From the NCBI GenBank assembly GCA_048939465.1, contig JBHLPL010000009.1, positions 308 through 32,307 of the forward strand: a DNA stretch of 32,000 nt, written 5' to 3'. The notes beneath the pieces are model-generated. The model was not told where the DNA came from, did no database searches, and saw nothing but the letters and a program-made list of their open reading frames with translations. The first letter of the stretch is position 1. Each line of letters begins with the position of its first letter. Positions 16,356 through 20,018 of this stretch are shown piece by piece. Source of the stretch: Promethearchaeota archaeon. Its GTDB lineage: Archaea; Asgardarchaeota; Odinarchaeia; Odinarchaeales; JBHLKK01. The position numbers and the translations under genes are program-made.

Positions 16356-17588
16356 TCAATCACAGGGTACGTTCGGAATAAAACCTATGCACCTCTTAAT
16401 TCTATAGTCCGCTTCCAGAGACTCCTTAACCTGAGAGTCTGTAATGCTCAAAGCTACGCGTTTAGTCCTACCATAGCGGCCCTTACTAACGACCTTAACC
16501 CCGATTATACCCAACGTGTCAAGTTCATTTATCAAGTCATTGACGCGTCTCTGAGTCAAAGAGTCCATGTGTAGCATCTGTGAAAGATCCAAGTACACCT
16601 TGAAAATATTCCGAGTTACTATCTCTGAGCATCCGTGCTTCTCGAGCAAGTAAATACTATACAATACAAGTTTCTGCTGAATCGGAAGTGTAGTTAATGC
16701 CTCTAAGATCGTATCGCGATCAATCTCATGCAGGGCACGCCTTACGTAGCTCTCCGTAATCTTTTTAGCCCCCTCTCTCTCACCCAACTCCCCGGCAACA
16801 CGAAGGAGATCCAAAGCCCTTCTTGCATCTCCGTGTTCTCTAGCTGCTAGAGCAGAACAAAGGTTGACCACACCGAATTCCAACACACCGTTGTAGAATC
16901 CCATTTCAGCCCTCTGGCTGAGAATATCCTGAAGTTCTAGGGCACTATATGGGGGAAAGACGATCTCTTCCTCGCTAAGGCTACTCAAAACCCGGGAGTC
17001 CAAATAGTCTTTGAATTTAAGGTCATTAGTAATCCCGACGATGCTCACACTCGCTTTCTTAAGCTGAGTATTTATCCTGGTTAAACCATACAAAATATCC
17101 GTACCACTTTTCTTCACCAGGATATCAACTTCATCCAGGACTATTATCATCAGTTGTTTCTTGGAATCGAGGTTCTTTTTGAACCTAGAGAAAACAGTAT
17201 AGGACGACAGACCAGTAGAGGGGATATTCGAGCTAACTTTGTCCGCCAGCTTTGTCAGAGCACGGTAATTAGTATCGACCATGCGACAGTTGACATAGGC
17301 GTAGATGGGAGCAGGTACCCCCAGTTTAAGGCTCTTATCTGATAGGCGTTCGAGAACATACTTCGTCACAGCGGTTTTACCCGTTCCAGTCTTACCATAA
17401 ACAAAAACATTGGAAGGCGTGCCGTCTTTCAGTGCTGAGGCGAGGATGACTCCGACCCTCGTAATCTGTTCCTCTCTGTGAGGGAGTTCCTTTGGAACGA
17501 AAGTTGGTCGCATCACATCACGATTCTTGAATACTTTGCCAGAAAGGAACTTCTCGAACGTTTCATCTAGACTTTCACCGTACACCAT
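16356..17588 (-). CDS. cdc6: Orc1/Cdc6 replication initiator
   Basis: PKELPHREEQI, Walker A GKTGTGKT, Walker B IIVLDEVD, HGDARRALDLLR, C-terminal wH with GRYGRT. Start probably MVYG (17588) rather than 17669. Confidence 0.96.
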   Translation of the reverse strand: MVYGESLDETFEKFLSGKVFKNRDVMRPTFVPKELPHREEQITRVGVILASALKDGTPSNVFVYGKTGTGKTAVTKYVLERLSDKSLKLGVPAPIYAYVNCRMVDTNYRALTKLADKVSSNIPSTGLSSYTVFSRFKKNLDSKKQLMIIVLDEVDILVKKSGTDILYGLTRINTQLKKASVSIVGITNDLKFKDYLDSRVLSSLSEEEIVFPPYSALELQDILSQRAEMGFYNGVLEFGVVNLCSALAAREHGDARRALDLLRVAGELGEREGAKKITESYVRRALHEIDRDTILEALTTLPIQQKLVLYSIYLLEKHGCSEIVTRNIFKVYLDLSQMLHMDSLTQRRVNDLINELDTLGIIGVKVVSKGRYGRTKRVALSITDSQVKESLEADYRIKRCIGFIPNVPCD

Positions 17589-18137
17589 TAGTAAAGCCCT
17601 CCCAGACCCACCAAAAATGAAGTTGAAACTCTTAGTGTATTTTTCATTTTTAAGCGGTTTGCTTCTCACTCATAACGAAACGACACGACGACGAACAAAC
17701 ACAATAACGCCGGACATATATGAATTCACACGCGCCAATAACAATTCCACTGTGCTTCAATCCCCTGCCAATCGCCATGTAATTAATAAGCAGATTCACA
17801 CTAGGCGCCAGACCATGTGAACCCCAGTGACGGAGTTGACGATTAAAATGCGGTTTTCGTATGATGGCGCTGAAGAAGGGCAAATTTCATTCTGAAGGCC
17901 GACTAGGTTGCTTTCATTAGAAAAAGACAAAAGATTCGCTCATTAAATTCCAGCAAAACGTTCACACAATGTGTACATGTGAACATCCGATAAGGCCATA
18001 AAGGGGCCATATCCTCAAAAAAGACTTTTTGTCGGAGCTTTGTCGGCCCCCATCGTTCACAGATAAACATAAATAATAAGTTGATAGAGTAGATACAGCA
18101 ATGTTGGCATGACAGCGCCGGATGGGAGAAAGACGCA

Positions 18138-19043: not shown

Positions 19044-19391
19044 CTAGGATTTTGACGGTTTCATTTTTTGGTATTTTTGAAGTAAGGACAGCCACTCACC
19101 CACGTAATCTTTTGCAAAAGCAGTCTGCGACGGGTCGACTTTCTGTATATTCTTCCTGACGTTTTTGAGGAATCTTATGTATGATTTGATATCAGCTGGC
19201 GCCTCCTTCACCAAAATCGTGATCAACGCGCCAGAGGACGAAGACCTCAAAGCGTTCAGCCAGCCAGCCCAGGCAAGTTTCTTCCACATGGAAACGCGAC
19301 CCGGATTATCAAGTACACTAGTCAAAAGCGAGATGGCAGTCTTACGATCTCCCGACTTCAGCGCACTTGCCAATTTCTCAACGAAAGACAC
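19044..19391 (-). CDS. Hypothetical protein (115 aa)
   Basis: GTG start preceded by a GAG-rich SD-like region; helical-looking ORF filling the gap; no family recognised. Confidence 0.55.
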   Translation of the reverse strand: MSFVEKLASALKSGDRKTAISLLTSVLDNPGRVSMWKKLAWAGWLNALRSSSSGALITILVKEAPADIKSYIRFLKNVRKNIQKVDPSQTAFAKDYVGEWLSLLQKYQKMKPSKS

Positions 19392-19472: not shown

Positions 19473-19664
19473 ACCCCATGATTTCCGGTGGAAGAAGTAA
19501 AAAACAACGACAAGTAATAATAATAATAAATAAAAAATATCCCGCTTCGTATTGGGCGTTCTTATATTTATAGGTTGTAGTGAATGAATCTTAAGCTAAG
19601 GCTCAAAATTATCTGAGTTGCGTATCCTCTTGGAATAAAATTCTTCCACAGGAAACGAAGGGGT
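19473..19664. promoter_or_regulatory. Putative replication origin oriC: two inverted ORB boxes flanking AT-rich DNA
   Basis: Minus-strand TTCCACCGGAAATCATGGGGT (19473-93) and plus-strand TTCCACAGGAAACGAAGGGGT (19644-64) match the ORB consensus with G-string. AT-rich (AAT)n/poly-A tract between them; cdc6 is 1.9 kb away. Confidence 0.85.
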
Positions 19665-19671
19665 GTCCATC

Positions 19672-19696
19672 TTATTAGAACATATGTTCTAATAAA
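19672..19696. repeat. Palindrome copy 1, TTATTAGAACATATGTTCTAATAAA
   Basis: 24-bp perfect inverted repeat; 25 bp identical to 19992-20016. Confidence 0.95.
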
Positions 19697-19707
19697 TAAA
19701 TCAAGAG

Positions 19708-19986
19708 TCAGTCAATTACTCGGAATTTGTGTACGACGATTACATCCGAGTACTTGTCAAAAAACCCATCAAACTCTACTTCGTAATCATCTGACACAAG
19801 TATAACACTGTCTGCAACTTTCCTACCATTCCTCATAACCAAAAATCCAAGTTTCTGGTTTTGCTTCAATCCAACCTTCGTGTCCCATTTGTATCTATAC
19901 CCGTAGAGCTCCTTATTGAATCTAGTTCTTTTCGGATCGTCCTGTTTCCCAGAAATGACGTCATAAGTGTACAATATTCTTGGCAT
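19708..19986 (-). CDS. Small hypothetical protein (92 aa) with Cas2/VapD-like ferredoxin-fold pattern
   Basis: MPRILYTYDV...DDPKRTRFNKELYGY...SVILV resembles the Cas2 xxVxYDI..D.KRR.R...L..Y pattern; fold call is inferred. Confidence 0.55.
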   Translation of the reverse strand: MPRILYTYDVISGKQDDPKRTRFNKELYGYRYKWDTKVGLKQNQKLGFLVMRNGRKVADSVILVSDDYEVEFDGFFDKYSDVIVVHKFRVID

Positions 19987-19988
19987 GA

Positions 19989-20018
19989 TTTTTATTAGAA
20001 CATATGTTCTAATAAAAA
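19989..20018. repeat. Palindrome copy 2, TTTTTATTAGAACATATGTTCTAATAAAAA
   Basis: 30-bp perfect inverted repeat directly upstream of the 19986 ATG. Confidence 0.95.

Follow-up and report, generated by a model that had tools for sequence, protein, structure and literature searches.

The stretch of DNA analysed here (the window, 32,000 nucleotides) contains a predicted replication origin, the initiator gene orc1/cdc6 and several small genes, the positions of which are given in Table 1. The region 19474-19663 is predicted from its sequence to be an ORB-DUE-ORB origin: the two origin recognition boxes (ORBs) are inverted, the spacer between them is AT-rich, the arrangement is kept in relatives and orc1/cdc6 is 1.8 kb away. 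In these respects it resembles the ORB-type oriC of Pyrococcus and oriC1 of Sulfolobus, in which inverted ORBs with a G-string likewise enclose an AT-rich spacer.

Table 1. Features of the origin region in the window and what each assignment is based on
Feature	Position	Strand	Remarks
orc1/cdc6 initiator gene	16356..17669	-	Pfam search
p154, 154 aa, N-terminal beta domain and C-terminal winged helix	18138..18602	+	Structure and profile comparisons
p115, 115-aa helical protein, family unknown	19044..19391	-	Start faces the origin; only in families f1 and f7
Left ORB, inverted, CCCCATGATTTCCGGTGGAA	19474..19493	-	Sequence and comparison of relatives
AT-rich spacer between the ORBs, candidate unwinding element	19494..19643	.	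Sequence; about 150 bp
Right ORB, TTCCACAGGAAACGAAGGGG	19644..19663	+	Read from the letters; kept in relatives
Palindrome copy 1	19672..19696	.	24-bp perfect palindrome at 19672-19695, read from the letters
Cas2-like gene, 92 aa, ferredoxin fold	19708..19986	-	3' end faces the origin; AF2 model and Foldseek
Palindrome copy 2	19989..20018	.	30-bp perfect palindrome, read from the letters

There is a 25-mer with exact matches at 19672-19696 and 19992-20016 in the window, and none of 100 shuffled sequences contained a match to it, even with up to three mismatches allowed. The sole gene between the two palindromes is the minus-strand ORF of 92 aa with its ATG at 19986 and its stop at 19708, and its homologues begin at the same Met. 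Copy 1 starts 12 nt past the stop of this Cas2-like gene and 8 nt past the G-string of the right ORB. On the other side of the gene, 6-30 nt upstream of its ATG, is copy 2, which overlaps a TATA-like T-run/ATTA located 24-33 nt upstream of the ATG; it is also 114 nt upstream of a PUA-PAPS-reductase gene. The arms of the dyad are one helical turn apart. This bears out the layout given in an earlier, sequence-only reading of the locus, which had described identical perfect palindromes enclosing only a 92-aa gene, one on the 5' region of that gene and the other abutting an ORB of oriC. That reading had also raised the possibility that assembly had duplicated the palindrome. This is ruled out, since two independent metagenome contigs carry the same arrangement: X3, a 6139 bp contig from a mangrove metagenome, covers the whole stretch concerned with one letter differing, X5 covers both palindromes, and no indels or joints were seen at the locus in either. 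The extra conserved palindromes just outside the ORBs and the Cas2-like gene reading into the origin set this locus apart from the ORB-type origins named above, and we found no description of either in the literature searched.

The gene for p154 adjoins either the origin or cdc6 in every family examined, including those in which these two are far apart, and is present as a single copy in 63 of the 91 Asgard genomes sampled. Its fold is a generic winged helix-turn-helix of the MarR/PadR/RosR type and not specifically that of BlaI/CopY. p154 is thus itself an uncharacterised candidate for a DNA-binding protein linked to the origin or the initiator. The matches to the p154 profile in G011, G021, G056, G081, G075 and G043 (family f7 and one f16 genome) contain one in-frame TGA or TAG near the N-terminus. 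This stop is probably upstream of the true start; the lineage is rich in mRNA introns.

Copies in the genome and conservation within the genus

The palindrome is not confined to the origin. An 18-bp core, TTAGAACATATGTTCTAA, has 12 perfect copies in the 1.96-Mb genome (G000), 20 with no more than one mismatch and 27 with no more than two; shuffled genomes gave 0-2 matches even at three mismatches. The 27 sites are spread over 22 contigs and are mostly single, and their placement relative to the origin is hidden by the state of the assembly (152 contigs, 91% complete). Between 25 and all 27 of them are intergenic, although coding sequence makes up 81% of the genome. The gaps in which they lie are convergent, divergent and tandem in 5, 9 and 7 cases, compared with 3.4, 6.6 and 11 expected from gap lengths. 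There is no promoter bias (six sites within 100 nt of a gene start, 8.8 expected) and a mild lean towards gene ends (11 of 21 sites within 100 nt after a stop codon, 7.2 expected, P = 0.07). Different copies have unrelated flanks, and the palindrome is thus not part of a longer repeat. All copies are able to form a hairpin (-9.4 to -12.4 kcal/mol, z -2.3 to -6.6).

No theme links the roughly 45 annotated neighbour genes, among which are MetRS, an HDAC-type deacetylase, OMP decarboxylase, dodecin, a YHS protein, ArsR with a P-type ATPase, catalase, Usp, GNAT, ADH, MFS and EamA transporters, a DNA methylase, uvrC, RtcB, a formyltransferase and peptidases.

Several of these loci have features of their own. 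On contig C58 (L011 and L012) the sites at 321, 11128, 12046 and 16306 have a common left flank of 21 nt, in which a TATA-like TTTTAATA is always 13 nt ahead of the palindrome, as in a promoter with an operator. A gene for a 200-aa membrane protein is bracketed by two of these four copies, and so is its paralogue (31% identity) by copies on C71; the C58 region has few orthologues in the sister species. There is a perfect copy in the 28-nt gap between uvrC and a 949-aa ORF, conceivably uvrA (L020, G000:C135:16217-21019), and this copy is kept in G002. The RtcB ligase gene (L009, 2559-5474, minus strand) holds an intein with a LAGLIDADG domain and is followed by a palindrome copy in a 150-bp convergent gap. 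The order at the catalase locus (L037, 48-2156, G001) is heme catalase, a terminator-like hairpin, the palindrome, arsR and the P-type ATPase. The catalase-palindrome-arsR layout is kept in G001 and G002; the contig of G000, C93, begins just before the palindrome.

The sister species G001 and G002 have 21 and 19 copies, respectively. Most of the copies in G000 lie between the same orthologous genes in both, convergent pairs included; at least five sites are between convergent genes and conserved there. The site upstream of the HDAC-type deacetylase gene is kept in all three species of the genus and occurs again in G030. Positions are thus stable between species whose proteins are 70-90% identical. 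There were no copies in the four genomes of the sister family and only a few elsewhere in the phylum.

At the origin itself, the Cas2-like gene, the origin and both palindromes are syntenic in relatives in which the 92-aa protein is 73-77% identical. The palindromes are letter-perfect in L023 (from G001) and in L024, a metagenome contig, and the spacers around them vary in length and sequence, indels included (L023/L029 and L024). There is a second copy after the gene in L024, with one mismatch, and a decayed trace of the same copy in L029, which is the turnover expected of binding sites. An anchored measure of flank identity was too noisy for a footprinting estimate (background about 0.57). 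Comparison between the species shows purifying selection on the palindromes at fixed places.

The palindrome and the Cas2-like gene in other Asgard families

Homologues of the Cas2-like gene are present in 12 of the 31 related genomes. Six families (f1, f2, f6, f7, f16 and f19) have the gene next to an ORB-DUE-ORB origin, and its 3' end is toward the ORB in f1, f2, f6, f7 and f19. Palindromes of the form GAACAnnTGTTC adjoin the ORB or overlap the stop codon of the gene in f1, f6, f7, f16 and f19. There is one after or on the stop codon in f1, f6, f7 and f19, and one on the promoter of the gene in f1, f19 and two of the three f6 loci. In f6 the loci L065 and L069 also have a palindrome on the outer side of the far ORB, and no gene starts there. 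The arms are invariant across families, and what varies is the central two bases (AT, CG or CA/TG) and the outermost bases. Each half of the site reads (T)TRGAACA, with the central 2 bp free.

The gene for p115 is found also at G011:C1:941763-942104 and G021:C11:44476-44817. In f7 a palindrome, GAACACGTGTTC, follows the stop codon of this neighbouring gene, so that palindromes bracket p115 and the origin there.

The presence of the palindrome follows that of the Cas2-like gene. Among 16-kb loci centred on p154, 13 of the 18 with the gene have a perfect palindrome; none was found in the 14 that are without the gene or have a weak match to it (E 1e-6 to 1e-9). Four genomes from other families (G040, G043, G074 and G011) have two to six copies of the 16-mer each. 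Two of the three motif copies in G040, a closed genome, bracket the Cas2-like gene as in the window, and four of the six in G011 are no more than 5 kb from it.

In f2 the Cas2-like gene, which is under clear constraint, and the origin are kept and the palindrome is absent. The same TATA box, GTTTTTTAAGA, is found there at the same distance from the ATG, without the palindrome. One f2 locus, L063, has the half-site TAGAACAT six bases after the stop codon of the gene. At three others (L061, L062 and L064) the ORF is 6-8 codons longer, and its tail, EKE-V/I-FL, is encoded by an AGAAA/TTTCT-type palindrome at the place that the GAACA palindrome occupies in other families. The site may have decayed or been retuned here, or the codons may produce such a palindrome by chance.

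The Cas2-like protein and candidate binders

The 92-aa protein has no match to a Pfam family. Its AF2 model (pLDDT 95.5) has a ferredoxin-like fold with an extra basic beta-hairpin that is conserved and Lys-rich. Cas2 chains were the leading consistent matches in Foldseek (prob 0.97-0.99, TM about 0.5, E 0.04-0.1), and VIA-align gave Z values of 6.8-8.2 for Cas2, for VapD and for many generic ferredoxin-like domains. As in Cas2, both Y8-D9, which closes strand 1, and D59-S60 vary little or not at all, and there is a sub-threshold profile match to the cyanobacterial Cas2 of Synechocystis (E 1.2) over the Y-D motif. The model, with its conserved Asp at the end of strand 1, points to a Cas2-like fold, and the protein shares with Cas2 and VapD both the Y-D at this position and a D-S-x-I in strand 4. 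It differs from them in having no match to PF09827 (Cas2), which has no match anywhere in G000, and in having its constant place next to oriC, not next to cas1 or a CRISPR array; its neighbours are origin genes, and membership of the Cas2 family itself is not indicated by profile or by linkage to cas1/CRISPR. The family is small, with ten cluster representatives below E 1e-10 among 1.84 billion. A Pfam scan of its weaker relatives from an exhaustive search found nothing, and the structural look-alikes in the Atlas, which come from many archaeal phyla, are all unnamed. The predicted two-copy fold (alignment A2) scored 0.26, against a mark of 0.42.

The best candidate for the protein that reads the palindrome is, tentatively, the Cas2-like protein, because palindromes are found only where its gene is. 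This is the only gene whose presence tracks the palindrome, and the best copies are on both of its flanks; autoregulated binders often carry their best sites on both of their own flanks. The protein is also basic. The retention of the protein in f2 without the palindrome argues against the protein needing the site, and we know of no record of the Cas2 fold as a sequence-specific DNA reader.

Other proteins were considered and rejected. p154 occurs widely without the palindrome. A Tyr or Asn in its recognition helix matched the presence of the palindrome in five families at first, but a wider sample broke this covariation: f16 has Asn and palindromes, and f4, f13, f15, f18 and f20 have Tyr and no palindromes. 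The motif ACAnnTGT bears a likeness to the cop box (PMC7253601), but as the fold of p154 is not specifically that of BlaI/CopY, this goes no further than a resemblance. The gene arsR is the only regulator gene adjoining a site, and this site is kept in three species, but it lies about 85 nt upstream of the arsR TATA box and just after the catalase gene, which argues against ArsR as an autoregulated binder. Among eight ArsR loci of other families, one has a related dyad. p115 is confined to f1 and f7 and so cannot explain the palindromes in f6, f16 and f19. A TrmB-like protein of 96 aa had no better support.

Possible roles of the palindrome

Taken together, the data suggest that the palindrome is a putative double-stranded DNA docking site for a two-fold symmetric, sequence-specific protein, a site that is ancestral at the module of oriC ORB and Cas2-like gene and has been expanded genome-wide in this genus. 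We consider this probable, if by no means assured. A symmetric dimer would bind the duplex at the palindrome, and the ancestral place of its site would be the module, with a copy (sometimes two) between the Cas2-like stop and the ORB, in some families overlapping the stop, and often another on the promoter or on the far side of the origin. The Cas2-like gene is probably leaderless and the promoter copy covers its TATA box, so that a protein bound at copy 2 would shut the gene off; the bound dimer would compete with TBP/TFB and repress transcription. Copy 1 would place the binder 8 bp outside the initiator site, beside Orc1/Cdc6, where it may be an origin accessory factor that helps or gates the use of the origin, or may block transcription toward the origin. 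In this genus the binder would have gained about 25 further sites. The roughly 27 intergenic sites ignore gene orientation, and the binder is for this reason probably also a site-specific nucleoid protein or general regulatory protein. The hairpins of all copies and the 11 of 21 sites near stop codons count somewhat against this reading, as they would also fit a role at the 3' end of RNA.

An ordinary transcription-factor operator of a lineage-specific regulon would account for part of these data, with the origin-side copies regulating only the Cas2-like gene and having no role in replication. Copy 2 overlaps the TATA box of that gene, several sites are 48-90 nt before gene starts (those of OMP decarboxylase, the YHS protein, GNAT and the membrane-protein paralogues), the four C58 sites follow their common TATA-like flank at a fixed distance and the deacetylase site is retained across species. 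We nevertheless think this unlikely, since the copy on the ORB side is downstream of the Cas2-like gene or on its stop codon in every family, the extra copies in L065 and L069 are not near any gene start, at least five sites are conserved between convergent genes, and the site near arsR is far upstream of its TATA box. A role in RNA is less likely again. The hairpin would then act at mRNA 3' ends, usable from both strands, to end or stabilise transcripts and to keep Cas2-like transcription out of the origin. The hairpin energies, the proportion of sites close to 3' ends and the fact that the copy after or on the Cas2-like stop codon is the most constant one are consistent with this. It is the sequence that is conserved, however, rather than the pairing: the GAACA/TGTTC arms have no compensatory changes in about 67 sites from the three species and five of the six gene-bearing families, and variation is in the loop and outer bases and mostly one-sided. 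Additionally, nine sites are in divergent promoter gaps and most copies have no following T-run. It is very unlikely that the palindrome is a selfish short element of the REP or MITE type that multiplied within this genus. A single genus has about 25 near-identical copies, compared with the 2-6 copies of the 16-mer in G040, G043, G074 and G011, and the copies are intergenic only, but conservation ends at 18-24 bp, target duplications are absent, the sites keep their places from one species to another and distant families share the word as a fixed feature of the origin. Neither a unit longer than the core nor insertion sites that vary among relatives was found.

The sequence-only reading had offered two explanations of its own. 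The palindrome core does match the Gram-positive LexA (Cheo) box exactly (GAACATATGTTC, with the GAAC-N4-GTTC dyad present), and the central 12 bp are identical to those of CGAACATATGTTCG; the core is identical to the SOS box of Bacillus and Mycobacterium (PMC2248561, PMC8607333). One site is directly before uvrC. A LexA-type SOS operator is still hardly credible here, as the best matches to LexA_DNA_bind (PF01726, 13.7 bits) and Peptidase_S24 (PF00717, 15.1 bits) are both below the cut-offs in this 91%-complete genome; in 9 of the 14 control genomes the LexA profiles were above the cut-off. The scan for enrichment at repair genes found uvrC alone (1 of 27 sites), the other neighbour genes being unrelated to repair, and the context is that of archaeal promoters, with no SOS-type gene set. 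Of the proposal that a repressor controls both the gene and the origin, what stands is the site-like word on the TATA box and beside the origin; LexA as that repressor does not. The least probable explanation, and one that the data contradict, is that the palindromes are recombinase core sites (dif/att) bounding an excisable single-gene cassette. Identical sites with inverted arms are indeed found on both sides of one small gene, and the genome has two tyrosine-recombinase genes (PF00589). These genes, however, are on contigs C43 and C80, both of which are without sites, and the 27 copies are mostly single. Six families keep the Cas2-like gene in its position, one of them (f2) without any palindrome, and there is no empty site in G001, L024, X3 or X5. 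All relatives and independent contigs carry the full 320-bp unit with no joints, although contigs can miss rare forms.

The docking site that we favour has parallels in other systems. CtrA of Caulobacter, Fis/IHF of Escherichia coli and Abf1 at yeast ARS1 are global regulators that also bind an origin. In each case a single sequence-specific protein binds both the origin and sites elsewhere in the genome, as is proposed for the palindrome; those binders are known and unrelated, whereas the link to the origin here is by position only.

The closest published case, by analogy, is UBP, which acts with the ucm motif at oriC1 of Sulfolobus/Saccharolobus (Dhanaraju et al., 2025; PMC12141716). UBP is a small basic protein limited to the Desulfurococcales and Sulfolobales, and it binds the ucm origin motif and 329 mostly intergenic sites in a manner uncorrelated with transcription (PMC12141716). 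Here, too, the same short word is found at the origin and at many, mostly intergenic sites regardless of gene orientation. In contrast with the palindrome, ucm is an 11-bp non-palindromic motif that is located within the unwinding region and bound by a monomer; the palindrome is outside the ORBs and its genome-wide spread is seen in one genus only. Neither fold search with the Cas2-like model had the UBP entries 9EFD-F in its top 50, and we therefore claim no homology to UBP. A speculative extension, to which we give slightly less credence than to the Cas2-like protein as reader, is that a domesticated Cas2-like protein reads the palindrome and would be an Asgard origin accessory factor, a site-specific nucleoid protein in this genus and a counterpart of UBP that arose independently, repressing itself via the copy that overlaps the TATA box.

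In summary, the element is an Asgard origin-associated palindrome without earlier description in the literature searched. Three things are new here: the variant centred on ATAT, a roughly tenfold multiplication of the site across the genome in one genus and the Cas2-like fold of the partner gene product, the last alongside tests by which LexA, recombination and p154 are excluded. A near-invariant palindrome outside the initiator boxes and a small conserved gene next to it give a concrete 30-bp DNA bait and a short list of candidate origin accessory factors. The authors of the UBP study ask whether there are analogous origin proteins in other archaeal lineages (PMC12141716), and the palindrome offers a route to an answer. 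The expansion to 27 sites could reveal by what route a factor of the origin turns into a chromatin or regulatory protein that acts genome-wide.
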